19,557 bases of DNA from a virus (Duplodnaviria > Heunggongvirae > Uroviricota > Caudoviricetes): positions 1 through 19,557 of IMG/VR virus record IMGVR_UViG_2529293142_000017; one strand, given 5' to 3'. A program made the position numbers and the translations under genes. This document shows positions 502 through 19,003 of the stretch, one piece after another (position 1 is the stretch's first letter; each line of letters begins with the position of its first letter). The notes under the pieces were generated by a model that worked only from the letters and a program-made list of their open reading frames with translations, was not told the DNA's origin and did no database searches.

Positions 502-1231
502 GACAGCAGTCCTCTGGCCTTAAGCTCTGCTCCCTGCTGGTCTATTTTGTCCTGCCACACCTTGCGCTGTGCCGGTGTGCCTGCCACCTCATAATCCATG
601 TGCGGGAGTGTTGCCGCTGACAGTCCGGTCAGCCGGAGAACCGGCTCACCGGTGAGGCTGATTTGCATCTGTTTTATTTTCTGTTCCAGCGATGATTTCA
701 CCTGCTGCATGACAGCCTTTTCCGGTGCGACGTAGCCCTGATGGCCGGTGGTGTTGGCGAGCGGATTTTCCTGTACCAGAATGCTCAGATGCATTGCCCG
801 GACAAGCGCCTCACAGGTTTCATTCAGGGCGTGTTCCAGCTCATGCTCTGCATACAGACTCAGCAGGTGATGATGTGCCTTCCGGTAGGCGGTGGCCGTG
901 CTGTCACACGCCCCTTTCAGGCGTTCACGTTCAAAATTCAGCACCACGGCCAGATTGTCATATTCCTGTACCAGCTCCCGGCGTGCCACGCGCTCAATGT
1001 GGCGCTGTTTCAGCTCGTCGCTCAGGACACCACCGGCTGCACGAAAGGCTGTGCGCCAGTCATCAGCGTCATTTCCGTCGGCCTGCGCCAGCGCATTTTT
1101 TCCTGCTCTGCCCGTTCAATGGCCTTGACGGTCTCATCCATCAGTCGGGCGTTCTCAAGGTGGGCGGCTCTGGCCTTTTCCAGTTGTGCCAGTGCGGGTT
1201 GCAGATATTCAGGGATGGTGTTGTCAGACAT
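498..1231 (-). pseudogene. sid: sid-like capsid size-determination gene interrupted by a single-base frameshift in a homopolymer
   Basis: N-terminal reading frame starts at ATG 1231 (MSDNTIPEYLQPALAQLEKARAAHLENARLMDET...) behind a GAGGAG RBS and stops at 1022. The C-terminal frame (498-989 in the ORF track, ...ARRELVQEYDNLAVVLNFERERLKG...) stays open upstream to the same point. The two frames meet at a T6 run (1096-1101); one extra base would give one continuous 244-aa ORF. Confidence 0.8.
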
Positions 1232-1265
1232 TTTCCGGCTCCTCGTCACTTCAGGTTAAGAAAAT

Positions 1266-1321
1266 TGTGACGTACACCGGACAACAACACGACGCATTGC
1301 AGATGTGCCAGTCCTGACACA
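1266..1321 (-). promoter_or_regulatory. Candidate Delta/Ogr-responsive late promoter for sid, with two TGT-N12-ACA dyads
   Basis: TGT-N12-ACA at 1304-1321 and again at 1266-1283. With transcription leftward into sid, the dyad centres sit about 55 and 18 bp upstream of a start near 1257, ahead of the GAGGAG RBS. P2/P4 late promoters are known to carry this dyad near -55. Confidence 0.45.
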
Positions 1322-1400
1322 GGAGACTCATCCTCAGACCGGCAAGCCAGGAAAAGGTCGCAGGAAAAACCGGCTTACTGTTTGTTTTTTTATATTTTAC

Positions 1401-1513
1401 TGTTCACCTCTGTTCACCATAAGAAAAAAGATAAGTAATACAGTAAGTTAAAGGGTGAACAATCGCAGTAATGACTGTTCACCGTCTGTTCACCACTGTT
1501 CACCCGTTCATGG
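1401..1513. repeat. Cluster of 6-7 TGTTCACC iterons (alpha-protein-type origin iterons)
   Basis: TGTTCACC at 1401, 1411, 1477, 1487 and 1497, inverted GGTGAACA at 1454, degenerate GTTCATGG at 1506, followed by an AT-rich stretch (1515-1600). Same octamer as in the repeats downstream of alpha, about 4.8 kb away. Confidence 0.65.
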
Positions 1514-1662
1514 ACTTTTTGTGCTGTTTATTACTTTTTATTTTTATTAATTAACTGAAATAAATAAGAAAAAACAATTTGTATTTCACTATAATTTTTT
1601 CCAGCTCCTTCCAGAGCGTTTTAAAGCTATCTGGCGCTGATGTGCAAAAAACACACAGCCAT

Positions 1663-1680
1663 TGTAAGGCTGCCGGAACA
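1663..1680 (+). promoter_or_regulatory. Candidate rightward Delta/Ogr-type late promoter dyad upstream of vis
   Basis: TGT-N12-ACA (TGTAAGGCTGCCGGAACA) centred about 110 bp upstream of the vis start codon, divergent from the sid promoter dyads. Confidence 0.35.
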
Positions 1681-1782
1681 AATCCCCCCTGTTGCGTCTG
1701 CCAAAAATATTCACAAAATAAAGCGCTACCCGAAGCCGGACGGACTTATCCGGTGCTGTATGGACATTAACGAGGTAGCCCG

Positions 1783-2049
1783 ATGCAAGCTGTTTTTTCT
1801 TCCCCGTCTCCTGCCCCTGTGACGCCACTGATGCCGCTGCCGGACATCACGCAGGAGCGTTTTTTACGTCTGCCGGAAGTGATGCACCTGTGCGGCCTGT
1901 CACGCTCGACCATCTATGAACTCATCCGTAAGGGGGAATTTCCGCCGCAGGTGAGTCTTGGCGGTAAAAATGTGGCCTGGCTGCACTCTGAAATCACCGC
2001 ATGGATGGCCGGGCGCATTGCCGGACGCAAACGGGGGTACGACGCATGA
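1783..2049 (+). CDS. vis: AlpA/Vis-family helix-turn-helix regulator (88 aa)
   Basis: GAGG RBS 7 nt before ATG 1783. The [28 protein letters not shown] segment is the AlpA/Vis-type HTH. Size and position (first gene rightward of the divergent late promoters) match P4 vis. Confidence 0.8.
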
Positions 2050-2084
2050 TGATGCCCGCTCTGCAAAAAGTCCCTTTTTCTGGC

Positions 2085-2114
2085 TTGCCTTTTTCCGGCA
2101 TTTGCGGATATAGT
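2085..2114 (+). promoter_or_regulatory. Candidate sigma70 promoter (TTGCCT-N17/18-TATAGT) at the head of a structured leader
   Basis: Hexamers at 2085-2090 and 2108-2114, immediately followed by a perfect 7-bp hairpin (2121-2140). Position corresponds to the early leftward promoter and immunity region of P4-type elements. Confidence 0.3.
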
Positions 2115-2177
2115 TTTTCTGCTGCCGCAAAATCGGCAGCCGGGCGTGGAAACCCGAGCAATTCACAGGCGACATAT

Positions 2178-2199
2178 GACGCGCCATGCGTCTTTTTTT
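2178..2199 (+). terminator. Small intrinsic-terminator-like hairpin within the leader
   Basis: GACGC-GCCAT-GCGTC stem-loop followed by T7 (2193-2199), about 70 nt downstream of the candidate promoter. Confidence 0.35.
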
Positions 2200-2447
2200 G
2201 TGTCGCAATCAACGCCACAGAGCGCCAGATTATGGTGTGGTGTGTGGTCAGTCGTGCAGATGGCATTCCGTGCATCCTGCCCGCGTCCGCTCATTATGCC
2301 GCAGAGTCAATGGTAGCTCAGGCGGGGCAGCCTCCGGGCTGGCCGGTATCCTGTGAAGCCGGTATTTCCACCCCCGTCTGGGCTATCGCCATCGAGCGTG
2401 GAAACTCCGGCGATAGCGTTATTTGCTATTCACAGGAGGCTGCCATC

Positions 2448-2645
2448 ATGGCTACAACCCTTACCCCCTCACACCCTGAATTTGTCTTTGTGTTTGCGGC
2501 TGTCCGTCGCGCAGACCGTCATCCCCGTATCTGCATGCTTCGCACCGTCGCCGGTGATGAACGCAGTGCCCGCCGTTCCCTTGTCCGTGACTATGTGCTC
2601 TCCCTTGCTGCCCGTCTGCCGGTGGTGGAGGTGTCCCGTGCGTAA
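2448..2645 (+). CDS. Hypothetical small protein (65 aa)
   Basis: AGGAGG RBS (2434-2439) 8 nt before ATG 2448. Its stop overlaps the GTG start of the next gene, consistent with translational coupling. It is the 3' part of the long 2001-2645 open frame. Confidence 0.4.
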
Positions 2646-2925
2646 TAAAAAAGCCCCTCAGACCGTCTCAGCGCGTCATGACGCCCGTGAACACCTCAGC
2701 ATTGAGGCTTACCATAAGCTCAACCGCGCCAGCGCCGTATCCCAGTTTGTTGGGGGTGATTTGATTCACCGTGAACTCTCCGGCCTGCATCAGCTCTACA
2801 TTCCGCATATTTTCAGCTACCTGAATGAAGATATTGATTTTGTGCTGAATGAGCTGAAAGCCAAAGGCCTGTGCCGCGATTTTCTCGCCCAGCAGAAAGA
2901 CCGGGGAGACAGGACGCATGTTTGA
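2638..2925 (+). CDS. Hypothetical small protein (95 aa); candidate epsilon-like derepression protein by position and size only
   Basis: GGAGG RBS (2626-2630) 7 nt before GTG 2638. Lies in the same operon ahead of alpha. No motif recognised. Confidence 0.5.
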
Positions 2926-3331
2926 TTTTCCCCAGCCCGGTGAGATTTACCGTTCTGCCGGTTTTCCCGATGTGGCCGTGGTCGGCATTCTGGAAGACGG
3001 TATTCCGTGGGAAATGCCGTACCGCTGCCCGGACATTGTCTGGAACCCGTACCGCCGTAAATTCAGTATCCTTGTGCGTATCCTCGCTGACGGGCGCACC
3101 ACAGACATCCCGCTGGGGCGTTTTCTGCGGGAATTTACCTGTGACCGTCCTGACCTGTTTAAACGCAGCCCCGTAAACCGGCATGCGGTACTGAAAGAAA
3201 TGGCCGGAGACCCGGAATTACAGAAATGGCGGGAGAAATATCTGGATATTTACCCGCAGGCCCCCTGTTCCGGTCAGCCGGGCGGCACCGGTGGCGCGGG
3301 AATGGCGGGAAATTCCCCGCACGGAGCCTGA
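2918..3331 (+). CDS. Hypothetical protein (137 aa), P4-type left-operon gene
   Basis: GGGGAG RBS about 9 nt before ATG 2918. Start overlaps the previous stop. Codon usage matches the neighbouring GC-rich genes. Confidence 0.55.
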
Positions 3332-3510
3332 CCCGGAAATCACCCCGGATAACAGTTACCGCAATTATCTGTAAATTAAAAAACGACCCCCGAAAAATTA
3401 AATGTGCGTATTCGCGCAGGGATACGCACGTCTTCAGGAGACGCAGATATGCCTTATCAGTTAATGCAACCGGCACGGAATGCAGTCATCTGTCACAGGG
3501 AGGAAAACAA

Positions 3511-3831
3511 ATGAAAACACCCTTACCGCCCGTCTTACGCGCTGCCCTTTACCGTCGCGCTGTCGCCTGTGCCTGGCTGACCGTGTGCGAACGTCAGCAC
3601 CGCTACCCGCATCTCACCCTTGAGTCACTGGAGGCGGCCATCGCCGCTGAGCTGGAAGGCTTTTATCTGCGCCAGCACGGTGAGGAAAAAGGGCGTCAGA
3701 TAGCCTGTGCCCTGCTGGAAGATTTAATGGAATCCGGCCCCCTGAAGGCCGCGCCGTCGCTGTCCTTTCTCGGGCTGGTTGTGATGGATGAACTCTGTGC
3801 CCGTCACATAAAAGCGCCGGTACTGCACTGA
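3511..3831 (+). CDS. Hypothetical protein (106 aa) immediately upstream of alpha
   Basis: AGGGAGG RBS (3497-3503) 7 nt before ATG 3511. Stop lies 14 nt before the alpha start. It is the in-frame 3' part of the 3226-3831 ORF. Confidence 0.6.
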
Positions 3832-3845
3832 AGGAGAACAACACC

Positions 3846-6179
3846 ATGAAAATGAACGTAACCGCCACCGTCAGCCATGCACTCGGCCACTGGCCGCGTA
3901 TCCTCCCGGCGCTGGGGATTCAGGTGCTGAAGAACCGTCATCAGCCCTGTCCGGTCTGTGGCGGGAGTGACCGCTTCCGTTTGGATGACAGGGAGGGGCG
4001 CGGCACCTGGTACTGCAATCAGTGTGGTGCCGGTGACGGCCTGAAACTGGTTGAAAAGGTGTTTGGTGTTTCCCCGTCCGATGCGGCCGCAAAGGTGGCT
4101 GCCGTGACCGGCAGCCTGCCCCCGGCTGACCCGGCAGTGACGGCTGCCGCCGGTGCTGAAACAGACGCTGCCCGGAAGAACGCCGCCGCACTGGCACAAA
4201 CCCTGATGGCGAAAACCCGTCCCGGAACCGGTAACGCCTACCTGACCCGCAAGGGCTTTCCCGGCCGGGAATGCCGGATGCTGACCGGCACACACAGAGC
4301 CGGTGGCGTGAGCTGGCGTGCCGGTGACCTTGTGGTGCCACTGTATGACGACAGCGGCGAACTGGTTAACCTTCAGTTAATCAGTGCTGACGGCCGTAAG
4401 CGCACCCTGAAAGGCGGACAGGTCAGGGGCACCTGTCACACCCTTGAAGGACAGAATCAGGCCGGAAAACGTCTGTGGATAGCGGAGGGATACGCGACCG
4501 CACTTACCGTGCATCACCTGACCGGTGAAACGGTGGTGGTGGCGCTTTCTTCCGTGAATCTCCTTTCTCTGGCCAGCCTTGCCCGGCAGAAGCATCCGGC
4601 CTGTCAGATTGTCCTTGCTGCTGACCGTGACCTCAGCGGTGACGGCCAGAAAAAAGCCGCCGCAGCCGCAGATGCGTGTGAAGGTGTTGTTGCCCTGCCG
4701 CCGGTCTTCGGTGACTGGAATGATGCCTTCACGCAGTACGGCGGGGAAGCCACCCGTAAGGCCATTTATGATGCCATCCGGCCACCGGCTGAAAGCCCGT
4801 TCGACACCATGAGCGAAGCGGAGTTTTCCGCCATGAGTACCAGCGAAAAGGCCATGCGTATCTATGAGCATTACGGCGAGGCGCTCGCGGTCGATGCCAA
4901 CGGCCAGCTTCTGTCCCGCTATGAAAATGGTGTCTGGAAGGTGCTGCCGCCACAGGACTTTGCCCGGGATGTGGCCGGGCTGTTTCAGCGTCTGCGCGCG
5001 CCGTTCTCCTCCGGGAAGGTGGCCTCCGTGGTGGACACCCTGAAGCTGATTATTCCGCAGCAGGAAGCCCCCTCCCGCCGCCTGATTGGCTTTCGTAACG
5101 GCGTGCTCGACACGCAGAACGGCACGTTCCACCCGCACAGTCCGTCACACTGGATGCGCACCCTGTGTGATGTGGATTTCACCCCGCCAGTGGAAGGGGA
5201 AACGCTGGAAACCCACGCCCCCGCGTTCTGGCGCTGGCTTGACCGTGCCGCCGGTGGCCGTGCGGAAAAACGCGACGTGATTCTGGCCGCACTGTTTATG
5301 GTGCTGGCAAACCGCTACGACTGGCAGCTCTTTCTGGAGGTGACCGGTCCCGGCGGCAGCGGCAAAAGTATCATGGCCGAAATAGCCACCCTGCTGGCCG
5401 GGGAGGATAACGCCACATCGGCCACCATTGAGACGCTGGAATCCCCGCGTGAACGTGCCGCGTTAACTGGCTTCTCACTGATACGCCTGCCGGACCAGGA
5501 AAAATGGAGCGGCGACGGTGCCGGACTCAAGGCCATCACCGGCGGCGATGCGGTGTCCGTTGACCCGAAATACCGGGATGCGTACTCCACGCACATCCCG
5601 GCGGTGATTCTGGCCGTGAACAATAACCCGATGCGCTTCACCGACCGCAGCGGCGGCGTGTCACGCCGGCGGGTGATTATTCACTTCCCTGAACAGATAG
5701 CCCCGCAGGAGCGCGACCCGCAGCTTAAGGACAAAATCACCCGCGAGCTGGCGGTCATCGTGCGTCACCTGATGCAGAAATTCAGCGACCCGATGCTCGC
5801 CCGGTCACTGCTTCAGTCCCAGCAAAACTCAGACGAGGCGCTGAACATCAAACGGGATGCCGACCCGACGTTTGATTTTATCGGCTATCTGGAAACCCTG
5901 CCGCAGACCAGCGGCATGTATATGGGGAACGCCAGTATCATCCCGCGCAATTACCGTAAATACCTCTATCACGCCTATCTGGCCTACATGGAGGCAAACG
6001 GCTACCGGAATGTACTCAGTCTGAAAATGTTCGGGCTGGGGCTGCCGGTGATGCTGAAGGAATACGGACTGAATTACGAGAAGCGCCATACCAAACAGGG
6101 GATACAGACCAACCTGACGCTGAAAGAGGAAAGCTACGGCGACTGGCTGCCAAAATGTGACGACCCTGCAACAATCTGA
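3846..6179 (+). CDS. alpha: P4 alpha-type multifunctional replication protein (zinc-binding primase, TOPRIM, P-loop helicase, C-terminal origin-binding region)
   Basis: 777-aa ORF with AAGGAG RBS. N-terminal CPVCGG...CNQCG zinc motif, EGYATALTVH (TOPRIM-like) and Walker A VTGPGGSGKS. Same length as P4 alpha, and flanked downstream by iteron repeats. Confidence 0.95.
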   Translation: MKMNVTATVSHALGHWPRILPALGIQVLKNRHQPCPVCGGSDRFRLDDREGRGTWYCNQCGAGDGLKLVEKVFGVSPSDAAAKVAAVTGSLPPADPAVTAAAGAETDAARKNAAALAQTLMAKTRPGTGNAYLTRKGFPGRECRMLTGTHRAGGVSWRAGDLVVPLYDDSGELVNLQLISADGRKRTLKGGQVRGTCHTLEGQNQAGKRLWIAEGYATALTVHHLTGETVVVALSSVNLLSLASLARQKHPACQIVLAADRDLSGDGQKKAAAAADACEGVVALPPVFGDWNDAFTQYGGEATRKAIYDAIRPPAESPFDTMSEAEFSAMSTSEKAMRIYEHYGEALAVDANGQLLSRYENGVWKVLPPQDFARDVAGLFQRLRAPFSSGKVASVVDTLKLIIPQQEAPSRRLIGFRNGVLDTQNGTFHPHSPSHWMRTLCDVDFTPPVEGETLETHAPAFWRWLDRAAGGRAEKRDVILAALFMVLANRYDWQLFLEVTGPGGSGKSIMAEIATLLAGEDNATSATIETLESPRERAALTGFSLIRLPDQEKWSGDGAGLKAITGGDAVSVDPKYRDAYSTHIPAVILAVNNNPMRFTDRSGGVSRRRVIIHFPEQIAPQERDPQLKDKITRELAVIVRHLMQKFSDPMLARSLLQSQQNSDEALNIKRDADPTFDFIGYLETLPQTSGMYMGNASIIPRNYRKYLYHAYLAYMEANGYRNVLSLKMFGLGLPVMLKEYGLNYEKRHTKQGIQTNLTLKEESYGDWLPKCDDPATI

Positions 6180-6195
6180 CCCTCATGACTCATCT

Positions 6196-6219
6196 GACCG
6201 GCATCTGCCGGTCTTTTTT
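6196..6219 (+). terminator. Rho-independent terminator after alpha
   Basis: GACCGG-CATCTG-CCGGTC hairpin followed by T6, 17 nt after the alpha stop. Confidence 0.6.
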
Positions 6220-6238
6220 ATCCCTGAATTCCCCGAAG

Positions 6239-6536
6239 GTGAACAATCCACTGTTCACCCTTCACCGTGTATTCACCCGTTATCACACTGAAATTAAAAG
6301 AGAAAAACGAAAGGTGAACAGTGTGAACAATCAAATCAAAAAAAACTTTTTTTTCTCCCTGTGTGATTTCAGTACGGGGGATTAATCACCGGTATGAGTC
6401 ACACCGGCAGAATGCCGGAGGTGAAGAATCGAATGTTCACCCTTCACCCATTATTCACCACCTATCATACTGAAATAAAAGGAGAAAAAGAAAGGTGAAC
6501 AGTGTGAACAGTTCTTCCGAAAAAAATTTTTTCTTA
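6239..6536. repeat. Two ~120-bp direct repeats, each with several TGTTCACC/GGTGAACA iterons (crr-like cis replication region)
   Basis: Copy A is about 6239-6358 and copy B about 6420-6536, roughly 60 bp apart and about 85 percent identical by eye. Each holds GGTGAACA, TGTTCACC, TTCACC and TATTCACC variants plus GGTGAACAGTGTGAACA, and each ends in an A-run/T-run tract (A8-C-T8 and A7-T6). Confidence 0.7.
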
Positions 6537-6651
6537 CTTTTAATTGTGTAAAAAACAGGCGATGCGCGCAGTGTGTATAGATATGTGTATAGTTATATTT
6601 TTTGAATATAATAATATCTTATAAATCAATGCTTTAACTTGCAATATTCAT

Positions 6652-6669
6652 TCCTATTATCGGCACCAT
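6652..6669 (+). repeat. Attachment-site core copy (left): 18 bp identical to 19004-19021, with the form of a tRNA 3' end
   Basis: TCCTATTATCGGCACCAT reads as T-stem 3' half, acceptor 3' half, discriminator A and CCA. No D arm or anticodon arm lies upstream, so it is a partial tRNA copy. It sits about 115 bp after the crr-like repeats. Confidence 0.7.
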
Positions 6670-7274
6670 CAAGAAAATCAATAACTTAGCTTAACTTCTC
6701 TAAGAAATTGTATCTTCTGTTATCACTTACAAACGCCTATACGTTGTTATGGGCTTTGGTAGTGTAACACGTATGGGCGAGTAGTTCCCAAGCTCAACCT
6801 CGTAACAAGTTCCTTTGAAGCTGGAAGACGTGCCACCGTCTCTAAACCTTCTACCAAAACTCTTAGCAAGATGTTCCACACCTGGCGCGGTGTCCAATGA
6901 TGCTACACGTCGTGAGACGTTGCAGAGGATAAACAGGCTAAATGATGGGAAGAGTTTTAAGTGCAATAGTGGATTAAAGCCCACCTCTTCAAAACCTAAC
7001 TTGATCGGGAAAGAATCAAGCTCTAGCACGGTTTCGTCCACCGGAGTACAACGGGTGCCTGATAAGAGAAGAACTGCTAAGACTTCATAGCTTTTGTGAA
7101 AAAGCCCTTTTTAGTGGATACGCCTACGGCGCTTATTTTTTGGTATAACCATCAAAGGCGCTTTATGGCTTCTATTGTCTTGAAAATGTATCTTTACTTG
7201 TATTGTGTTTTATGCGTAGTCTCCCTGTGTAGTATGTAACTTGTTAATTTTCATATGAATACAGAGGCAACACG

Positions 7275-7433
7275 ATGAAAAACATTGCAGCTATAAAACG
7301 TAATAACCGCAAGATTCACGCTCGTAAGTTCCTGTCTACGCCAGAAGGAAAAGCCTGGTTAGAGCGTAAACAGAGAGAGAACGAAGAAAGAAAACTCCTT
7401 AGTGAGTTGAAATGGCTTAGAGAGGATTTCTGA
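7275..7433 (+). CDS. Possible small basic protein (52 aa), not in the supplied ORF track
   Basis: AGAGG 7 nt before ATG 7275. Encodes MKNIAAIKRNNRKIHARKFLSTPEGKAWLERKQRENEERKLLSELKWLREDF, a charged helical peptide. Too short for compositional support. Confidence 0.3.
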   Translation: MKNIAAIKRNNRKIHARKFLSTPEGKAWLERKQRENEERKLLSELKWLREDF

Positions 7434-7700
7434 AAATCTCCAGAACGCAACAGGACGCATTCTAACGCTGTTTTCATTGCTTGATATAGGGATGTATAGG
7501 TGGTGTGTGTTTAATGCGTCTGTGAGCTTGTTTTGTGCCTTATTTTGCATTTTCATAATGCAGAAGAGAACACGGAAAGCCTTAAAATTAATTATTTGGG
7601 TATTTAAGGCTATTTTCAGGTTATTTAAGGGTATTAAACTTGATTTAATTGGTTGAAATATAAACAGATAGTTCTGTATCTTATTGATTTATAAGGTTAT

Positions 7701-7780
7701 TTTTAAATAAAGGTAAATAAAAAATAAATAGCCATAAATAGCTATAAATACATCTAAATACCTATAAATCCCTTTGAATA
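7701..7780. repeat. Eight tandem 10-bp units ending in ATAAATA (helically phased A/T repeat)
   Basis: ttttaaataa, aggtaaataa, aaaataaata, gccataaata, gctataaata, catctaaata, cctataaatc, cctttgaata. The exact 10-bp period predicts intrinsically bent DNA. Confidence 0.6.
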
Positions 7781-7884
7781 CATATGAAGCCCTTCCCTTA
7801 TGGCTAGATTGCGAGAGGTGCTTAACGCGATTTTCAGCGCCCCCCGATCTGGAAAATCCAGAATCCCCAAATATCAAGGAGGCA

Positions 7885-8424
7885 TTACGCCTCCTCTTCT
7901 TCCTTCTTAATTCGCTGTACCGTCGAAGGAGCAACATTAAAGATCTCGGCGGTTTTACGCACTGACAGGCCATCAGAAAGGGCTTTCTTTATACCTTCTC
8001 TATCTACTGCTTTTCCATTACCACGCTTTGTAGGATTGACGGCTTGCGCTTCTCGTTTACGTTCTAACATCAGTTCACGTTCACACGTTGCCACTGCCGA
8101 CAACATAGTAAGCATCATTTTTCCCATCGCGCTTGTAATGTCAGCAATGATCCCTTCTTTGTGAAATCGAACAATTACACCACGATTATTAAGCTCTTCC
8201 ACTAAAGCAAGAATGTCTAAGGTGTTACGCCCTAAACGGTCGAGAGAGTGCACGTGTAAGGTGTCGCCTTCTCTCAGATAGGATAAACACGCCTGCAATC
8301 CTGGACGGTTAGTGTCTTTACCTGACAGCTTATCTTCAAAGACTTTATCAAGCGTTACTCCTGCAAGCTGGCGATCAGTGTTCTGATCTACAGTGCTCAC
8401 ACGCTTATAACCGATATTGCTCAT
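7885..8424 (-). CDS. Serine recombinase of the resolvase/DNA-invertase family (179 aa)
   Basis: N-terminal GYKRVSTVDQNTDRQ catalytic-serine motif, internal SLDRLGRN, and C-terminal HTH (TAEIFNVAPSTVQRIKK). AAGAGG RBS before ATG at 8424. Confidence 0.9.
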   Translation of the reverse strand: MSNIGYKRVSTVDQNTDRQLAGVTLDKVFEDKLSGKDTNRPGLQACLSYLREGDTLHVHSLDRLGRNTLDILALVEELNNRGVIVRFHKEGIIADITSAMGKMMLTMLSAVATCERELMLERKREAQAVNPTKRGNGKAVDREGIKKALSDGLSVRKTAEIFNVAPSTVQRIKKEEEEA

Positions 8425-8439
8425 AAAATCCTCTTAATG

Positions 8440-8560
8440 TATCGATTTGGCACTACTTCAATGCAAATGAGTATATCGTATTCATTTGGTCTGTTTCAAG
8501 CCTTATAGGTACGGAATATTACACGATTTAGCTGTATTCATTTGGTATGCCTAATGGATA
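8440..8560. promoter_or_regulatory. Candidate recombinase target or regulatory region with TTTGG-type repeats
   Basis: Direct repeats GTATTCATTTGGT at 8478 and 8535, and imperfect palindromes ATTTGGCA-N-TGCAAAT (8446-8470) and ATTTGGCA-N25-TGCCAAAT (8621-8661), immediately upstream of the recombinase start, where res or inversion sites usually lie. Confidence 0.25.
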
Positions 8561-8994
8561 CACAGGGGAATAGATTAAATGGTGTTCTGTTTATACAGGT
8601 TTATTTGTTAGATCAACAATTTGGCATTTCTAAACAGATGTTTGAACGTTGCCAAATGTCTTGACAACACAAGAAAAGGGCTTGCTATGCCACGCATTAC
8701 ACGAAATAAGGCTGTAAAAACAAAATAAATTTTAAAATTTGCACAAACGAGAAAACTCATTCGACAAATAATAGATTAATTTTTAGCCAACAATTTCTGA
8801 TGGTGCTCTGTAAGCCGCATTACACAAGGCTTTGCGAAAGTGATGTAAAAGTGAAGAAAGTTAACATTGCTCTTTTAAGCTACTTTTTCATTGAATTTTT
8901 AGTATGGAATTACACAGGAATAAGTTAGGGATATTCTATGATTTACACAGGGAATATAGGGGGATTATGGCACACACATAGAAAGGCATTACAC
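8518..8994 (+). repeat. Dispersed direct repeats of ATTACACAGG(A)ATA-type motif, at least 6 copies
   Basis: ATTACAC at 8518, 8696, 8819, 8909 and 8988, TTTACAC at 8942, plus ATACACAGGGGAATAG at 8558. Inverted copies (GTGTAATT) at 9476, 9530 and 9581. AATTACAC-N12-GTGTAATT forms a perfect inverted pair at 9510-9537. Confidence 0.5.
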
Positions 8995-9256
8995 AGAGTG
9001 AGTGCTATGTGACAAATGGATGTAACGAGAGGTTACATTCAGCTATCTGAAATGCTCTTTGTAAGAAAGTTGGTAGTAACGGTAGGTCATAGTGAGCTAG
9101 GGGGTAGGTCACTGTGAACTACAATAAGACTATTAATAAAACTATATTAGATTATTAATTAGATCATAATAATAATATTCTTTATATCTATATATATATG
9201 ATCTTTTGCCTTCCGGCGTTAGCTTCACTCTCTGGCAAGCAACCTTACTCCGCTAC

Positions 9257-9352
9257 CTTTCGGGCTTCGTGGCTGGCCCGTTCCGCTCACACCGAAAGCA
9301 AAGCGTTACTTTCTTCGTGTAACTATCGTTGGCGGTAACGCCCACGAAGAAA
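9257..9352. other. GC-richer island of interleaved inverted repeats inside AT-rich non-coding DNA
   Basis: CTTTCGG (9257) pairs with CCGAAAG (9292); GCGTTAC (9303) with GTAACGC (9335); TTTCTTCGTG (9310) with CACGAAGAAA (9343). The last two pairs cross each other, giving a pseudoknot-like or alternative-hairpin topology. Confidence 0.4.
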
Positions 9353-9631
9353 TACTATTGCGCTGTGCGCAGTAAGAGTAATCACCTAACCAATCATACT
9401 GATTGCTTACGTGTTAACTCTCTCTAACTCTTAATTACCCTCCTACATTTAATAACTCTGTTATTCTCTGTAGTTGTGTAATTACTCGAAGAGAGAGCGG
9501 CTAAAGCTCAATTACACTCTGCTTTCCTCGTGTAATTTCACTAAGCCTCAATACAATTTCACTTCCTACATTCTGTAGTCGTGTAATTGTTTTCGGTGGA
9601 AAAGCCAGAGGCGACACCGAAAGAGAATTCT

Positions 9632-9695
9632 GATCTTATTAATCTTATCTATCTTAGTTAATCTTCTTACTTATCTTACTTAATCTTTATCTACT
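9632..9695. repeat. Phased ATCTTA repeats (about 7 copies, 9-10 bp period) starting with a GATC 13-mer-like element
   Basis: GATCTTATTAATC at 9632-9644 resembles the oriC-type 13-mer class (GATCT + AT-rich), followed by aatcttatct, atcttagtta, atcttcttac, ttatcttact, taatctttat. Confidence 0.45.
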
Positions 9696-10223
9696 TTATT
9701 ATTAATAATAGCTTTATAAGCTCTCTGTAGCTCTCTGACGCAAGAAACAGCATTCAGGAAGGGAATCACCTTAGAAAAGTGTTCTTTGCGTCATAATGTG
9801 TTTTATGAAGGATTCAGAGGTGTTTCATAACAGGAATGTATAGAGGATACGTTAGGTAATTAAAAATAAGGGGTCTAAATGCTTCTCTAACAGCATTAAG
9901 CAGGGTAGGGAATGGAAACGCATTGCCTACATATATAATCTCACTACAGAGCTTTACAGAGCGTTTTATAAAGTGACTCTCTATCTTATATCTACCATCA
10001 CCTTTTTATATACCTAACAAATACCAAATAAGCCCCTTAAATAAGCCTCTGGCGAGCTAAACAGCCATTACATAAGGGAATGTATTGCTTTTATCAAAAC
10101 TTCGTTAGAACGCGTTTTAGAGCGTTTTAGACAATAATGAAGAATAGCACTACACAGAAGAGCACGAATTGCTAAGAAAAAATGTAAGTGCATGAAAAAG
10201 ATCAGATTTTTTGTGAAAAGGTA

Positions 10224-10252
10224 TTGACAAATGTTTCTTTATATGTAATAAT
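10224..10252 (+). promoter_or_regulatory. Candidate sigma70 promoter for the plus-strand small-gene operon
   Basis: TTGACA (10224-10229), 16-17 bp spacer, TAATAAT (10246-10252), about 110 bp upstream of the first gene. Confidence 0.5.
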
Positions 10253-10361
10253 AGGTATTAGAGGGACAGAAAAACATTCTTCTCTAAATAATCAAAATCA
10301 ATGCACTTTGAAGCCGTCAGGCTTGCAAGGTGTTTTTCTTTTAACTGAATAAGGAGTTTTT

Positions 10362-10550
10362 ATGAAATGGTTTACACCGAAACACGTCGTCGAGGCATTT
10401 AAAAAAGGTGAGCTAACACGCCACCAGGTAGTAATGAACCGTAATATGGCAAGGAGTCGAGGTTATCCAGAGCGAGCAGCTTGCTTCAATGAAGCACTCA
10501 AGATTATTGATGAACTAAGAAAAAATGAAAAAGAATCTGAAACAGAGTAA
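10362..10550 (+). CDS. Hypothetical small protein (62 aa)
   Basis: AAGGAG RBS 5 nt before ATG. First gene after the promoter. Basic and helical. Confidence 0.5.
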   Translation: MKWFTPKHVVEAFKKGELTRHQVVMNRNMARSRGYPERAACFNEALKIIDELRKNEKESETE

Positions 10551-10569
10551 AGAATAGAAGGAGAAAACT

Positions 10570-10740
10570 ATGAGCGAAACTACAGAAAAGAAAAGACAAC
10601 CACGCACTTGCTTTCATATTCCTGATGAAGTATTTCAGGTGTTGTTTAAAGAAGCCAGAAGTAGACGTATCACTGTTACAGATTACATTCTTGATATGTT
10701 GAAAAGAGAGGCTGAAACACTCTCAAATAAAAGCAAGTGA
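10570..10740 (+). CDS. Probable ribbon-helix-helix (Arc/MetJ/CopG-like) DNA-binding protein (56 aa), not in the ORF track
   Basis: AAGGAG RBS 7 nt before ATG 10570. RTCFHIPDEVFQVLFKEARSRRITVTDYILDMLKRE fits a beta-strand plus two helices. Confidence 0.5.
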   Translation: MSETTEKKRQPRTCFHIPDEVFQVLFKEARSRRITVTDYILDMLKREAETLSNKSK

Positions 10741-10793
10741 TTTTTATCACCATAGTAGCGCCGTAGAGCGTGATTACATCAAGGAGATTTTTA

Positions 10794-11483
10794 ATGATTA
10801 ACCAACTAACTTTTACAAAACACTATGACACGTTTGATAATGTATCAAAGATTTATTCTGATAAATTCCCTCAAGGAAAAGATTTAGATCTATTACATAT
10901 TGTGCTTTATTTTCGATTCCTTAGTTATCAGGAAAACAACCTTAATTGTTATGAAAGTCACGAAACATTAGCTAAGATTTTTAAGTCTTCAGCGTCAACA
11001 ATTAAACGTAAGATAAACGATCTTAAAGAGATGGGATTATTAGAAACATCCCCACATCCTGATCCGTATATTTCATCTTTGATTTACAATGCTCTCCCTC
11101 TCACAGATGCACATATTACTCCCCCAGGAGAATCATCACTCTCTGATCTTTCTGAGGCAGCAGAAGCACAGGAACAACCTAAAGGCCATAAACAGCCTTC
11201 TTTTGATGTTCTTGATGATTGGGATGCGCCTTTGCCGTGGGAGACGGAAGAAACACCTGTTTCATCAAGTGAAAAGGTAGCTAATGATAATGAGGAGGAT
11301 GTGTTAGAGAATTTTGCCTCTCTTATCTGCCAGCAGAAACACACCAGAACAGGAGGGGCATCATTTATAGAATTTGCAAATTCACTAGCTTATAGACACG
11401 GGCTAAAACGACCAAATGGTATTGAGGCATATTTTTCTAAGAATTACCCAAATGTGTATGATGACTTTGATATTCCATTTTAA
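10794..11483 (+). CDS. Winged-helix DNA-binding protein with acidic C-terminal region (229 aa); candidate replication initiator or regulator
   Basis: AAGGAG RBS 7 nt before ATG 10794 (the track's upstream GTG start would cover the RBS). HTH-like segment ESHETLAKIFKSSASTIKRKINDLKEMGLLE. Acidic Ser/Glu-rich C-terminal half. Confidence 0.7.
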   Translation: MINQLTFTKHYDTFDNVSKIYSDKFPQGKDLDLLHIVLYFRFLSYQENNLNCYESHETLAKIFKSSASTIKRKINDLKEMGLLETSPHPDPYISSLIYNALPLTDAHITPPGESSLSDLSEAAEAQEQPKGHKQPSFDVLDDWDAPLPWETEETPVSSSEKVANDNEEDVLENFASLICQQKHTRTGGASFIEFANSLAYRHGLKRPNGIEAYFSKNYPNVYDDFDIPF

Positions 11484-11494
11484 TAAGGAGGGTT

Positions 11495-11773
11495 ATGATT
11501 CAATATTTAGTAAAAAATCAAGTAGACAGAATTCAGTGTAATGACACAGGAAAACGCATCTACGAAACACTTGCTTACCTCTATAAAGGAAAGCCAACAC
11601 CGCTAAAATATAGCGATGTGTTACATCGAGCAGGGTGCTCTGAAGATGGTTTAAAATTCTGGCTGAAACAGCTATCAAATTTCGGTGTTATAGAGATTAA
11701 AGAATTATCTTTCTCTACATTCAATCTCAAAAGACTGGATAAAGAAATAGTATTCATCTATTCCACTCTCTAA
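11495..11773 (+). CDS. Hypothetical protein (92 aa), possible small HTH protein
   Basis: AGGAGGG RBS directly upstream, 11 nt after the previous stop. The YSDVLHRAGCSEDGLKFWLKQLSNFGVIEI segment looks HTH-like. Confidence 0.6.
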   Translation: MIQYLVKNQVDRIQCNDTGKRIYETLAYLYKGKPTPLKYSDVLHRAGCSEDGLKFWLKQLSNFGVIEIKELSFSTFNLKRLDKEIVFIYSTL

Positions 11774-11905
11774 AATCTCTCTATGTAATTAAAATATAAA
11801 AGGAAAACATTATTATGATAGTAGCTATGTATTGGTTATTGTTCTTTCTCACGTTAGAAACATATTTCGGGGTGTTTTCCTTTAAAAGAAAAGGAAAAGT
11901 AAATA

Positions 11906-12313
11906 ATGGCAAAAAGAAAAAACAACGTTGTTAAGAAAATCGGTGATTCAGCTTCTCTTCTAAGTAAACCTAAATCTATTCTAAGACGTAAAGACTTTAA
12001 AGAGCTAGTTACGCTCTCCAAGCAAAATAGCGCCCCTGGCGAATGGAAAACAGAGATCATAGAACATTCTCCCTCTGTGCCTTGTGGAGATGAATTTAAC
12101 GCCTTACAAGAAATCTTATCTTCAACACCTGGCGTATTCTGGAAACCTAGAAAAAGAAAAGAGTATATTGTTGATAGCTCTGATTTACGCAAATACCAGA
12201 TTTTAGGATTTGAAGACTATAACCACTACGTTGGTTATCTCGCCACCAATGGCCTAAATAATTTAGTTCCTGAATTCCATTTAGATAATGATGATCACTA
12301 TGGAGACTTTTAA
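11906..12313 (+). CDS. Hypothetical protein (135 aa)
   Basis: AAAGGAAAAG RBS region before ATG. Basic N-terminus (MAKRKNNVVKK). Same strand and codon style as neighbours. Confidence 0.6.
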   Translation: MAKRKNNVVKKIGDSASLLSKPKSILRRKDFKELVTLSKQNSAPGEWKTEIIEHSPSVPCGDEFNALQEILSSTPGVFWKPRKRKEYIVDSSDLRKYQILGFEDYNHYVGYLATNGLNNLVPEFHLDNDDHYGDF

Positions 12314-12314
12314 T

Positions 12315-12653
12315 ATGAACAAAAACACGTATGATACAATTTACTCACTAATTAATTATTATGAGGATGATTACCTCCTGCCTTTAAACCGCGCTGAACT
12401 TGAAGCATATAAAGAAAATACACCATCGGCACTAAATGAGGCGTTTAAACACTGGGATCTAGCTGTGAATGCCTTGGAGCACCTCTTTAAGCGTGTAGAG
12501 ATGCTCTGTAAGCGCGAAAACGCATATCTGACAGCGGATCAGATATGGGAGCTATCAAACTGGATAGAAGATATTGAATCTGATGTTCGCTATGTGGGAG
12601 ATGGCCTTATCGAACTCGCACAACGCTTAGGCGCTGCTATCACAGAAGAATAA
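12315..12653 (+). CDS. Hypothetical protein (112 aa)
   Basis: GGAG 9 nt before ATG 12315, which lies 1 nt after the previous stop. The track's earlier start (12288) overlaps the upstream gene and has no RBS. Confidence 0.6.
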   Translation: MNKNTYDTIYSLINYYEDDYLLPLNRAELEAYKENTPSALNEAFKHWDLAVNALEHLFKRVEMLCKRENAYLTADQIWELSNWIEDIESDVRYVGDGLIELAQRLGAAITEE

Positions 12654-12682
12654 AAAAAGCAACAAAAAAGTTGTAAAATATC

Positions 12683-12711
12683 TTGACATTTCATATATTG
12701 TATGTTAATAT
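12683..12711 (+). promoter_or_regulatory. Near-consensus sigma70 promoter (TTGACA-N17-TAATAT)
   Basis: Hexamers at 12683-12688 and 12706-12711 in the intergenic gap after the 112-aa gene. Confidence 0.55.
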
Positions 12712-12909
12712 AATTATATGGGGTGATTATTTTTCCTTTATTGGTTCGATATTAAAAATTCTTCTTGTCGTTAAAGGGGAGTAAAATCTCCGCTCCCCGC
12801 TTCTCCTCCTTAAGTAAATACTGTGTCATTATTACCTCTTTTTTCCTTTGTTATGCATACATCTTGGAGTATGCATAACATAGGGTAATTACATAGGTAC
12901 AAGTTAATA

Positions 12910-12941
12910 AAAGGCGGCTCTAAATGCTGCCTTTTATTTTG
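12910..12941 (+). terminator. Intrinsic-terminator-like hairpin ending a ~200-nt ORF-free leader
   Basis: AAAGGCGGC-TCTAAAT-GCTGCCTTT (9-bp stem with one G-T) followed by TATTTTG. Lies between the strong promoter and the next gene start at 13003. Confidence 0.5.
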
Positions 12942-13002
12942 CCCGTTATGCAACTTAAAAGTTGTATTTCTTACTTTAAACAAGGTAACAAGGTTTATAT
13001 AA

Positions 13003-13215
13003 ATGTTGTTTTTAAACGATAAAGAGCAAATCATCAAGTATAAAGATGAAATGCTGAAAATTAATCCACAAATTACCGAAATGGTAGCTAAATACGCTGG
13101 GTGTTCTGTCGAGGAAGTAGAAAGATGTGTTGAAAAATATTTTTCTCCTTCTTCTCCGTCTACACCTTCCCTTAATGAATTAATCAAATTAAAAGCTAAG
13201 GAGATTACTAAATGA
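13003..13215 (+). CDS. Hypothetical small protein (70 aa)
   Basis: Weak RBS (AAGG about 12 nt upstream). Stop overlaps the next start (ATGA). Confidence 0.45.
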   Translation: MLFLNDKEQIIKYKDEMLKINPQITEMVAKYAGCSVEEVERCVEKYFSPSSPSTPSLNELIKLKAKEITK

Positions 13216-13574
13216 TTATTGATTTAGACACTCTATTTCCAGTTCGAAAGACTTTCACAGATATTGTAAGTTATTGTACTGATCCGTTTGCCTCTGTAGA
13301 AAGCAAGGTTTTTGCTTCTCTTCCTGCTGATGTTGAATGCGGAGACTTGATCACCAGCACTGGCGCTAAATATGAATCAGGAGATGATATCTATGTTGTT
13401 ATGAGTGAATTTTTAACGGCTGGAGAAAATAAGCCTGTAGATGTTTTACGTAGCAATGCTGGCCTTGTCTGCATCAAATCTGATGCGCTGAATGCTGTAA
13501 GTGAAGCAGCAAAAACAGCATTAATTAAAAAAGGCTTCCAGCTTGAAGGGTTCCATTCTGTTTTCACTTCTTAA
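13212..13574 (+). CDS. Hypothetical protein (120 aa)
   Basis: AAGGAG RBS 8 nt before ATG, overlapping the previous stop. Acidic protein. Confidence 0.6.
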   Translation: MIIDLDTLFPVRKTFTDIVSYCTDPFASVESKVFASLPADVECGDLITSTGAKYESGDDIYVVMSEFLTAGENKPVDVLRSNAGLVCIKSDALNAVSEAAKTALIKKGFQLEGFHSVFTS

Positions 13575-13592
13575 TAAAAGGAATAATAATAA

Positions 13593-14621
13593 ATGATTTT
13601 AGGTAATGATTACGTTGATTTAGCTCCTCTGTTCTCTGCGCATAGCACTAGAAACTATCTGCTTTCTACTCTTGATTTTACGGATTCTGTAGGGGTTACA
13701 TCTCATAAAGTAGCTGTTTCCCAGCTTGTCGAAAGCAACGAATCTCTGTTCAACAAAGAAACCTCTCGTTTCTCTTCTGAACACAACGTTACTAAGCGTG
13801 AACAAGGCAAAGAATATCTTATCGAAATCCCGTACTTTTTAAGGCAAGACCTGATCAAACCGCAGGACGTGCAAGGCAAGCGTAAGCCTGGCACTGATTT
13901 TCAGGAAACACTCACTGATATCTATGCTGACTATGTTGCTAAACACCACGTAGCGTATCAGCGCACTAAAGAAAGCGTATTGGCTGCTTCTTTGTTTAGT
14001 GGTCGCACCTATACCCCGAAAACTGACGATGTTCTTATCGAGTGGGGCAAGCTGTTTAACGTATCAGCTATGAAAGCCACTGTGAACGCTTCCAGCACTG
14101 ACACCACGAAGATTTTTAAAGAATTTGATCAGATTGCTACGAATATTATCGACAGAGCACAAAGCCAGGCGGCTGCTGTAGAAAGAATTGTTGTTTTCTG
14201 TAAACCTGACGCCTTCTCTGCAATTCGATTCTCTGCTGGTATGGCAAACGCATTCCAGTATGTAAGCCCACTGGAAGAGGGGAATGTTGTGTATCAGCGT
14301 CGTGACCTGCTGCCAGGGGTGACAGCGTTCACTATCCCAGGAACTAACATTGATGTTGTTAAACTGGTAGATCCGCTACACCTTGCACATATGACCGCAG
14401 ACGCTGTAGCTGTTCCGAAGTTTGCTAAAGGCTCTAATGTATATCAGAACATCTACGGGGCTGCTTCCAGCACCTTTGAACTGATTAATGCCGCTCCTGC
14501 TGAGGTGTACAGCTATAGCTATGAATCTTCTCGTGGTGATGCTGTTAACGTTGTTACAGAGAATAGCCAGATGGTGGTAAACCACGGCGTTGGCTTCTCT
14601 GTTCAAATCACTGTTAAATAA
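13593..14621 (+). CDS. Hypothetical protein (342 aa) with virion-structural-like composition; candidate major structural protein
   Basis: RBS-like AAAGGAA before ATG. Rich in Ala/Ser/Thr/Val/Asn with no Cys-rich or nucleotide-binding motifs. Followed by a strong terminator, as is common after highly expressed structural genes. No family recognised from sequence. Confidence 0.8.
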   Translation: MILGNDYVDLAPLFSAHSTRNYLLSTLDFTDSVGVTSHKVAVSQLVESNESLFNKETSRFSSEHNVTKREQGKEYLIEIPYFLRQDLIKPQDVQGKRKPGTDFQETLTDIYADYVAKHHVAYQRTKESVLAASLFSGRTYTPKTDDVLIEWGKLFNVSAMKATVNASSTDTTKIFKEFDQIATNIIDRAQSQAAAVERIVVFCKPDAFSAIRFSAGMANAFQYVSPLEEGNVVYQRRDLLPGVTAFTIPGTNIDVVKLVDPLHLAHMTADAVAVPKFAKGSNVYQNIYGAASSTFELINAAPAEVYSYSYESSRGDAVNVVTENSQMVVNHGVGFSVQITVK

Positions 14622-14640
14622 CATTTTAACGTGTAATAGA

Positions 14641-14673
14641 GGCGTGGCGTGTATTCACGCTTCGCCTTTTTTT
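14641..14673 (+). terminator. Rho-independent terminator
   Basis: Nested GC stem (GGCG...GCGTG-TATT-CACGC...CGCC) followed by T7, 20 nt after the 342-aa gene stop. Confidence 0.65.
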
Positions 14674-14707
14674 ATTTATTTTTTAAATTTTGAGAGGTGA
14701 TTAAAAT

Positions 14708-14911
14708 ATGGAAGTGATTCTGAAATCAAAAAATGGTGTACACGTACATTTAGATGCTAATGATTCTAGAGGATTGTTAAATCTGAAATATCTATGTTCT
14801 CTCCTAGATGTTCCATATGAAGGAGTAAAAGCCCGTATGTTCAGACTAAACGAGAGTATTGATCAAGCTCTACACCATTTCTTAAGTAAAGAAGGTGGTA
14901 AAAATGATTAA
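14708..14911 (+). CDS. Hypothetical small protein (67 aa)
   Basis: GAGAGGTGA RBS 7 nt before ATG. First gene after the terminator. Confidence 0.5.
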   Translation: MEVILKSKNGVHVHLDANDSRGLLNLKYLCSLLDVPYEGVKARMFRLNESIDQALHHFLSKEGGKND

Positions 14912-14925
14912 TAAGGGGATTTTAA

Positions 14926-16755: not shown

Positions 16756-16786
16756 TTCCCGCCATAACATTACAAGGAAAATTATT

Positions 16787-17500: not shown

Positions 17501-17542
17501 CTGTAAATGCCTCTAAAACGCTCTGTAACGATGTAATTATAA

Positions 17543-17573
17543 AAGAGGCTACCAATCTATGTTGAAGCCTCTT
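17543..17573. terminator. Hairpin between convergent genes (possible bidirectional terminator)
   Basis: AAGAGGC-N17-GCCTCTT with flanking A/T, between the 237-aa gene stop (17500) and the integrase stop (17582). Confidence 0.45.
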
Positions 17574-17581
17574 TATTGCGT

Positions 17582-18946: not shown

Positions 18947-19003
18947 TCAATTAGTAATGGTCGTAGGTGATGGCATTAACACGAGATTAATCGAGTGTTT
19001 TAC

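Follow-up and report, generated by a model that had tools for sequence, protein, structure and literature searches.

Bacteriophage T7 carries about 12 CCTAAAG units in 13-bp steps at nt 175-340, directly inside its 160-bp terminal repeat, as was checked in the T7 sequence. The function of these repeat arrays (SRL/SRR) is itself unsettled. In the cosB site of lambda (R3-I1-R2-R1, with a bend made by integration host factor, IHF) and the pacL site of SPP1 (boxes with phased A-tracts), repeats and bent DNA lie on one side of the terminase cut, over ~30-150 bp. In ParR-parC, the P2 Cox boxes and the 186 Apl sites, 6-10 short units repeat directly every 10-11 bp, and in some cases they form two blocks with a promoter between them. 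P4, with its P2-type cos site, and the phage-inducible chromosomal islands (PICIs), with helper pac or cos sites, are integrative elements that have few structural genes and a near-identical copy of the maturation site of their helper. The DNA analyzed here is a stretch of 19,557 nucleotides ('the window'; positions 1 to 19,557 of the Caudoviricetes record IMGVR_UViG_2529293142_000017), in which a 12.35-kb island at the tRNA-Thr gene thrW bears a helically phased array of TAAATA units at 7704-7780. This array is a selected set of sites on one helical face and forms part of a cassette, termed J-type, together with a copied cut site, that of the terminal repeat of phi92-like phages. The array is tentatively read as a protein-binding or bending arm, lying on the unique side, of a DNA-maturation (pac-like) cassette that is specific to the helper of a candidate phage satellite, a reading that is possible rather than probable. 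The features of the cassette are as follows, in window coordinates.

7704-7780, plus strand: right array of eight units (six exact TAAATA, then TAAATC and TGAATA), from the sequence, Tandem Repeats Finder (TRF), shuffles and relatives.
7601-7637, minus strand: left array, the same motif inverted (TATTTA at 7601, TATTTT at 7611, TATTTA at 7622 and TATTAA at 7632), from the sequence.
7653-7682, plus strand: weak sigma-70-like promoter match, TTGAAA-18-TATCTT (9/12), in the 66-bp centre between the arrays.
7803-7876, no strand assigned: block homologous to phi92 nt 363-285, about 40 bp to the right of the right array, from sequence matches.
7582-7876, no strand assigned: conserved non-coding J-type cassette (left array, centre, right array and the block at the direct-terminal-repeat (DTR) boundary), from comparison of relatives.

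Direct reading of the window places exact TAAATA hexamers (n=6) at 7704, 7714, 7725, 7735, 7745 and 7755. Two units with one mismatch each close the array (7765, TAAATC; 7775, TGAATA), and on the 3' side TGAAGC, at 7785-7790, forms a degenerate ninth unit. The first-pass annotation had described eight exactly phased 10-bp ATAAATA units; a phased repeat does lie at that place, but the steps are 10, 11, 10, 10, 10, 10 and 10 bp, with one 11-bp slip, and the heptamer is exact in three units only (7724, 7734 and 7744), the conserved core being the hexamer. The array occupies, as that annotation had also said, the convergent gap between an open reading frame (ORF) of 52 amino acids (aa; 7275-7433, plus strand) and a recombinase gene (7885-8424, minus strand). 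The inverted left array, which had been overlooked together with the DTR cut-site context of the cassette, follows 10/11/10-bp steps and is kept in all J-type loci with some variation in its hexamers.

TRF reported arrays of period 10, 20 and 30 at 7724-7794. The chain of units was compared with 300 dinucleotide-preserving shuffles of the local AT-rich DNA (7560-7900) and of the non-coding region 6669-10360. The observed chain holds six exact units, or eight if up to one mismatch is allowed, and the shuffles reached at most one or two exact units, or three with one mismatch; as the chain far exceeds these maxima, the array is non-random. TAAATA was also the sole hexamer in the whole window to form a chain of at least four at 10/11-bp spacing. 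A generic scan of IMG/VR for four TAAATA-N4 units was uninformative, since it yielded nothing but AT-rich repeats of giant viruses, which are unrelated.

The array is ~78% AT, and each unit (T-AAA-T-A) places an A3 tract between TpA steps. The helical phasing of 10-11 bp is that of phased A-tract DNA, but no unit holds four or more consecutive A (or T) free of a TpA step, and 'A-tracts', as the units had been called, is a generous term for tracts of merely A3. Curvature was predicted with a wedge model, using parameters that are reportedly those of Bolshoy et al. 1991, and the calculation was checked on A6N4 and out-of-phase controls. The model gave ~27 degrees per 30 bp at 7740-7760, at about the 99th percentile of the window. 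The end-to-end ratio of the array over 100 bp was 0.894, within the lowest 1% of the window; an ideal A6N4 repeat gives 0.57, and the window has several sites more curved than the array. The array is thus predicted to be moderately curved, with its units on one helical face; the site falls in the top 1% of the window, but the earlier 'strongly curved' overstated a value so far from A6N4. The unique side of the boundary had the strongest predicted curvature of the whole locus in the Buttiauxella and Citrobacter relatives; in phi92, where a 4-kb stretch was examined, it ranked within the top 3%. P-type E. coli elements, in which the left half of the block is of the phAPEC8 type, had no predicted curvature on that side.

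The distribution of the array among relatives was strict. It was present in 41 of 41 loci with a phi92-type (J) left half-block, in none of the eight loci with a P-type left half (the hybrid L025 included), and in none of three types from other genera. Within the six core units the hexamers were 100% identical and the spacers 30%; because of this difference the units appear to be old, with the hexamer under selection, and not the outcome of fresh duplication. Twenty-one array haplotypes were found in the 41 loci, with segment lengths of 61, 71, 81 and 91 bp (83 and 93 in the window type). Copy number changed by whole 10-bp units, and each J-type locus retained 4-8 exact hexamers, never fewer than four. 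Divergent alleles of the helix-turn-helix (HTH) domain at the N-terminus of the initiator (Rep), of o52, of the ribbon-helix-helix (RHH)-like o56, of o62 and of o92 all occurred both with and without the array. The HTH and RHH proteins of the element were therefore rejected as its partner, there being no co-variation of their alleles with array presence.

The right end of the cassette identifies its context. Positions 7803-7876 match ~60 phages of the subfamily Stephanstirmvirinae, and window 7809-7848 is identical to phi92 nt 357-318 at 40 of 40 positions, with weaker similarity over ~80-100 bp. The matched phi92 stretch spans the annotated inner end of the left DTR (DTR-L, identical to DTR-R) at 343|344, and the equivalent of this phi92-type (Justusliebigvirus) boundary in the window is GTGCT|TAACGCG at 7822|7823; a small hairpin, TCTGG-AAAAT-CCAGA, follows it inside the block. 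Independent confirmation of the boundary comes from phage BME3, whose record starts at AACGCG, one base off the phi92 annotation, and for which PhageTerm gave a 342-bp DTR (PMC12210895). Phage WPEC4 has a 328-bp DTR, and its genome ends on the right at ...CGCGTT, the same TT|AACGCG position in the aligned block.

Some E. coli elements carry a second allele of the block, GGCGCAAACGTGATCAATGTTTAACGCGAAGATCAGCGGCGTCAGGTCCACGCAGCGACAATTCTCAAATATCA, which is ~81% identical over 83 bp to Phapecoctavirus (phAPEC8/ESCO13-like). The comparison covered window 7803-7876, L031:3929-4011 and the phage loci L007, L191/L192 and L194/L195. The variant GGCAC occurs in the block of a Klebsiella phage and in the Buttiauxella and Citrobacter elements, GCGCC in the E. 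coli phage and elements, and L025 is a natural hybrid with a P-type left half-block and a J-type right half. Judged from sequence, the block is a helper-lineage-specific copy of the terminal-repeat cut site, since two alleles match two phage genera at the same boundary and the variants track by host.

A further stretch of the island resembles the interior of the phi92 terminal repeat:

8609-8658, no strand assigned: inverted repeat TTTGGCA...TGCCAAA (ATTTGGCATTTCTAAACAGATGTTTGAACGTTGCCAAAT), weakly homologous to and colinear with phi92 nt 184-135 inside the DTR.

The similarity is 70-72% over 50 bp (E 0.004-0.016; phi92 counterpart TTGGCAAG...CTTGCCAA), and the inverted repeat is kept in the Buttiauxella element L012 at 84.8% over 46 bp. 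A second DTR boundary of the satellite was not found by similarity to the left end of phi92. Near-perfect palindromes resembling Fur boxes (GATAATGATTATCATT) recur in and beside the phi92-like DTR (L002 3065-3290 and 4117-4195; phi92 ~75-100 and ~260-285). Several records named as Campylobacter phages (A150, C3, A110a, A145 and B15; 146-151 kb) share the blocks and tape-measure genes of E. coli Stephanstirmvirinae, and these are probably mislabelled or contaminant assemblies.

Of 5,426 complete E. coli genomes, 428 carry the ~295-bp cassette, at thrW and at a tRNA-Gly site. The cassette is 95.6% identical between the window and relative L029, and the capsid genes of the same pair are 73.8% identical. 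Its edges coincide with the arrays and with the points of cargo insertion: both edges receive cargo, and the genes found there differ among relatives. In P-type elements the slot of the array cassette is occupied by a 52-aa hydrophobic minus-strand ORF (L010 3760-3918; L025 3719-3877; L031 ~3545-3690), possibly a small membrane protein or toxin, and then by ~260 bp of AT-rich non-coding DNA.

The island that carries the cassette has the following features.

6652-6668, no strand assigned: attL core at the 3' end of tRNA-Thr thrW, TCCTATTATCGGCACCA, a direct repeat that is also the right junction of an upstream P4-like prophage.
19004-19020, no strand assigned: attR core, direct repeat with 6652-6668.
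7275-7433, plus strand: 52-aa basic ORF, kept in thrW-type elements with or without the array.
7877-7895, no strand assigned: hairpin AGGAGGCattacGCCTCCT, at the 3' terminus of the recombinase gene; the insertion of optional cargo begins here.
7885-8424, minus strand: 179-aa serine recombinase, Hin/Gin-like (Resolvase and HTH_7 domain matches; PHROG 'DNA invertase').
13593-14621, plus strand: major capsid protein (Phage_cap_E), a distant homologue of phi92 gp124 (23% identity end to end).
14926-16755, plus strand: 609-aa homologue of the phi92 tape-measure protein gp134 (35-37% identity, E 1e-23 to 1e-33).
16787-17500, plus strand: 237-aa Dit-like tail protein, 60% identical to phi92 gp135 (E 3e-82).
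17582-18946, minus strand: tyrosine integrase of the island, from annotation and domain matches.

A direct repeat of 17-19 bp (6652-6668 and 19002/19004-19020) delimits the island, which extends from 6669 to 19003 between the att cores. In E. coli 20KM2762 (NZ_CP151063) the same island lies directly beside thrW and is 100% identical over window 7000-9000. The element also encodes small ORFs and an O-like/HTH_36 initiator, and no small terminase was recognizable among its proteins. The capsid family is restricted to enterobacteria (Escherichia, Citrobacter, Klebsiella aerogenes, Enterobacter, Cronobacter, Buttiauxella, Kluyvera, Serratia and Sodalis), and relatives of the island itself occur in Citrobacter, Buttiauxella, Kluyvera, Enterobacter, Cronobacter and Serratia. 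As in known satellites, the island has its own integrase and att sites, an incomplete set of virion genes (capsid, tape-measure-like and Dit-like only) and a maturation signal of its helper (the 40/40 phi92 DTR boundary, with the phAPEC8-type second allele). Because the block copies the DTR cut site and the structural genes have phage homologues, the island is a strong candidate for a phage satellite of Stephanstirmvirinae. No description of a satellite of phi92 or of Stephanstirmvirinae was found in the literature searched, which is no proof of absence. The Sakai prophages Sp1 and Sp2, which also lie at thrW, were considered and are different elements.

The working of such an arm can be outlined as follows. 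A phi92-type helper would infect the carrier, and its terminase/DTR-processing machinery would cut satellite DNA at GTGCT|TAACGCG. Cooperative protein binding on one face and/or DNA bending would occur at the phased TAAATA units and at the inverted set 66 bp leftward, and the bound or bent arm would wrap or present the adjoining cut site and tune the timing or efficiency of cutting, or its assembly. Whole units, when gained or lost (4-8 exact copies), would alter the length of the arm and leave its helical phase constant. The geometry is consistent with this scheme: the last good unit ends at 7780, which places the repeats within ~150 bp of the cut equivalent, as in terminase arms, and the repeated sites lie 40-120 bp from the putative cut, with the mirrored set beyond the 66-bp centre. 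The partner of the array is most likely a host nucleoid protein or an early protein of the helper, given that the array does not co-vary with the DNA-binding proteins of the element and the helper has no equivalent array. The arm would be modulatory rather than essential, because P-type elements do without it. An architectural-protein site (IHF, Fis or H-NS) had been proposed earlier; phasing, moderate predicted curvature and constrained hexamers speak for a site of this kind, but the H-NS motif was not enriched. A fuller proposal, more doubtful than the arm alone, is that the array belongs to a packaging or terminus-processing site in undescribed Enterobacteriaceae satellites of large virulent DTR myoviruses (phi92/phAPEC8-type, Stephanstirmvirinae), and that the phi92-type allele adds an array that would recruit a host or helper protein and bias cutting toward satellite DNA, with unit number as the means of tuning.

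Several observations weigh against the array being such an arm. Neither the complete Justusliebigvirus genome analyzed (148,442 bp) nor the 97 kb covered of phi92 had a comparable array, at the helper's own cut site or elsewhere, although a terminase arm would be expected to recur at the cut of the helper itself; the Justusliebigvirus genome had zero chains of four or more of any hexamer. Mimicry of a helper array was rejected on these grounds, and the helper machinery therefore has no need of the array. Elements with a P-type left half that are otherwise near-identical (L025, ~95% identical elsewhere) lack it; the basic life cycle of the element can thus proceed without the array, which rules it out as the site of an essential small terminase encoded by the satellite. 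The strict linkage of array and half-block, only 40 bp apart, could be explained by hitch-hiking. No binding protein was identified for the array, and A3 tracts bend weakly. Packaged or circular satellite DNA was not found: 25 of 25 metagenome contigs and all IMG/VR matches were integrated, and none of the integrated contigs ended at the boundary. The metagenome contigs of 12-14.6 kb were integrated copies with chromosomal flanks and no terminal overlaps, and the IMG/VR matches were prophage calls from isolate genomes. As no packaged satellite DNA was found, cutting of the satellite at 7822|7823 is inferred.

Compared with the systems described at the outset, the array is most like SRL/SRR of T7, with which it shares ~8-12 short conserved cores, variable spacers and a position on the unique side, tens of bp from the inner boundary of the left DTR. 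The T7 period of 13 bp is, however, off helical phase and its motif is unrelated. The T7 arrays also belong to the phage itself and flank both sides of the terminal repeat in its genome, whereas the present array occurs in the satellite only, in a setting that lacks such two-sided flanking, and is absent from the helper phages. As in lambda cosB and SPP1 pacL, the sites appear to be arranged for wrapping by an oligomeric protein beside a cut; they differ in being absent from the site of the helper and from P-type satellites, and in that the satellite cut is putative. The island shares with P4 and PICIs its integrative nature, its few structural genes and its near-identical helper site, and its alleles likewise match different helper lineages, but the helper here would be a large virulent short-DTR myovirus of the Stephanstirmvirinae in place of a temperate cos or pac phage, and the island encodes capsid, tape-measure and gp135 homologues of its own. 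Short direct repeats on one helical face are shared with ParR-parC, Cox and Apl sites; those arrays adjoin the gene of their binding protein and co-vary with it, whereas no element protein co-varies with the TAAATA array. The TTTTGAT heptads of ctxAB in the CTX phage (bound by H-NS, ToxR and ToxT) are reported to be likewise an AT-rich unit of strain-variable copy number on a mobile element; their period is 7 bp, against 10 bp here, and they lie directly upstream of a defined promoter and gene, neither of which is established for the array.

Other explanations of the array were weighed against the maturation-arm reading. It is unlikely that the array serves to nucleate filaments of H-NS (or StpA, Fis or IHF), silencing the cassette, its weak promoters and cargo in the lysogen-like state until an infecting helper perhaps relieved it. 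H-NS has a preference for AT-rich DNA that is curved and contains TpA steps, and ATAAAT occurs in its 10-bp motif (PMC2094087); the AT content, phasing and predicted curvature of the array, the gene-poor surroundings (6669-10360, 38% GC) and the lack of co-variation with element proteins would all suit a host factor of this kind. The high-affinity nucleation motif tCGATAAATT (Lang et al. 2007; PMC2094087), on the other hand, matched the array four times at 7/10 or better and never at 8/10 or better (shuffle mean 2.5, p 0.24), and other parts of the window scored higher. Generic H-NS binding neither needs nor explains six invariant hexamers, exact helical spacing and free spacers, and it leaves unexplained the strict link to the phi92-type half-site and the P-type elements that manage without an array. 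Of the silencing nucleation site proposed earlier, there remains a generic H-NS role made plausible by composition and curvature, the motif itself being no more frequent than in shuffles. Rather unlikely, too, is an operator, in which the opposed site sets around the 66-bp centre would let a polymerizing repressor or activator control a transcript running across the cut site or leftward, in the manner of ParR on parC or of Cox and Apl on their phased boxes; the number of units would then determine how strongly the transcript is expressed, like that of the TTTTGAT heptads at the ctxAB promoter. The divergent arrays around a centre with a sigma-70-like match (7653-7682), the single helical face, the copy-number polymorphism of 4-8 units and the RHH-like (o56) and winged-helix (o92, Rep N-terminus) proteins of the element would fit, as would the clear leftward promoter and repeated TGATCA sites that other-genus relatives have on the same side of the boundary. 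Such promoter matches are, however, as numerous in the region as shuffles predict, this one is weak, and its -35 is not conserved, being TTAAAA in most relatives; a promoter at 7653-7682 is not established. The match drives no conserved ORF and no RNA known to Rfam, there is no sign of a transcript defined by a terminator, and the alleles of o56, o62, o92 and the Rep N-terminus do not follow the array.

The remaining possibilities are weaker. An unwinding region or set of iterons at a near-terminal replication origin, used by the O-like initiator or the helper replisome, is quite improbable. Origins typically contain phased AT-rich repeats, the proteins of the element include an O-like/HTH_36 initiator, and in T7 a secondary origin adjoins the repeats at the left end; but the array lies 3 kb from the initiator gene, ignores three very different N-terminal alleles of the initiator, and is missing from the helper genome and from P-type elements with the same initiator alleles. 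There is equally little probability that the array is a functionless minisatellite, a slipped-strand expansion of a 10-bp unit linked to a selected block. Whole units are frequently gained and lost (21 haplotypes in 41 loci; 61/71/81/91 bp), several related lineages have no array, and a strongly selected site lies 40 bp away. This account would not lead one to expect 100% identical hexamers beside 30% identical spacers unless the hexamer were selected, nor at least four exact units in every J-type locus and an inverted array of the same motif 66 bp away. The recombinational enhancer or accessory site of the adjacent serine recombinase that had been suggested earlier was rejected and is extremely improbable, its basis being the closeness of the array to the 3' end of a Hin/Gin-like gene. 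The known enhancers of Hin/Gin/Cin-type invertases are paired Fis sites and not TAAATA arrays. Most array carriers have no recombinase (L004-006, L016, L020, L021, L023, L024 and L027-029), and L010, L019 and L025 have the recombinase and no array. The gene is inserted directly after ...CAAATATCA (7876), at the junction 7876/7877 (...CAAATATC|AAGGAGGCATTACGCCTCCT), which is the same to the right of the block in J- and P-type elements, and a 62%-identical paralogue fills that slot in a divergent lineage. As array and recombinase assort independently among relatives, the recombinase is optional cargo, unlinked to the array.

Further candidate functions were rejected. An array of T4-type late promoters (TATAAATA / CTAAATAcCcc) was discarded because that motif is one of Ackermannviridae (PMC7283392); in addition, the late genes of phi92 have sigma-70-like TTGACA-17-TAnAnT and no TATAAATA upstream. 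A non-coding RNA was rejected (no Rfam matches even at E<=1, an unstructured array and no evident terminator-defined transcript). The plus strand of the array is closed by TAA in all frames, and a 94-aa ORF on the minus strand (7689-7973) is interrupted in relatives, whose length varies there by 10/20/22 bp, which discounts coding on either strand. Integrase arm sites or Xis sites were dismissed, as the array is ~1,040 bp away from attL.

Other parts of the window were noted in passing. Positions 1-6668 belong to a P4-like prophage, of which they form the right part. This prophage shares the thrW site in tandem with the 12.35-kb island, and two different satellite-type elements thus lie side by side.

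2306-2393: C4 antisense RNA of the P4-like prophage.
2121-2198: isrK.
3846-6179: alpha primase.
~6400-6530: crr.

Within the island, ~2 kb at 8425-10361 are repeat-rich and have no annotated gene in any relative. Units resembling (C)ATTACACAGG lie at ~8560, 8693, 8817, 8911, 8942 and 8988, and TTACAC/GTGTAA units at 9480-9590; these repeats may be iterons or a piece of a satellite terminal repeat. A second phased array, of ATCTTA units in ~9-11-bp steps (9633-9706; TRF periods 9/19/22), is found in close relatives only. Ahead of the first operon gene, 10223-10350 holds a sigma-70-like promoter that is strong (TTGACA...TAATAAT), and after it come a leader hairpin and T-run (GAAGCCGTCAGGCTT...TTTTT). 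The leader is kept in a distant metagenome relative (L008 2382-2453), and its conservation suggests attenuation or antitermination control. Mosaic alleles occupy 10570-11120 among elements that are otherwise ~95% identical: the 56-aa RHH-like protein has two forms (~46% identity) and the N-terminal HTH of the initiator at least three (99%, 91% and 22-32%), a pattern suggesting that specificity determinants are exchanged as modules.

The cassette and the element around it are of more interest than the array alone, which is of moderate interest. Were the array merely silencing or neutral, it would be ordinary and the cassette still notable. Concatemer recognition and cutting in short-DTR phages are poorly understood outside T7 and T3, and the phi92/phAPEC8 group is widely used in phage-therapy cocktails. 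An element present in ~8% of complete E. coli genomes that copies the boundary pinpoints a minimal cis site (~80 bp, TT|AACGCG), and at 12 kb it is a tractable substrate for the cis requirements of DTR processing. The array is the one piece that the satellite has and the helper lacks, and is an obvious candidate for competing for, or regulating, the machinery of the helper. If the island is a functional satellite, the satellite biology of enterobacteria would extend to virulent large DTR myoviruses, and the efficacy of phi92/phAPEC8-group phages against carrier strains could change.

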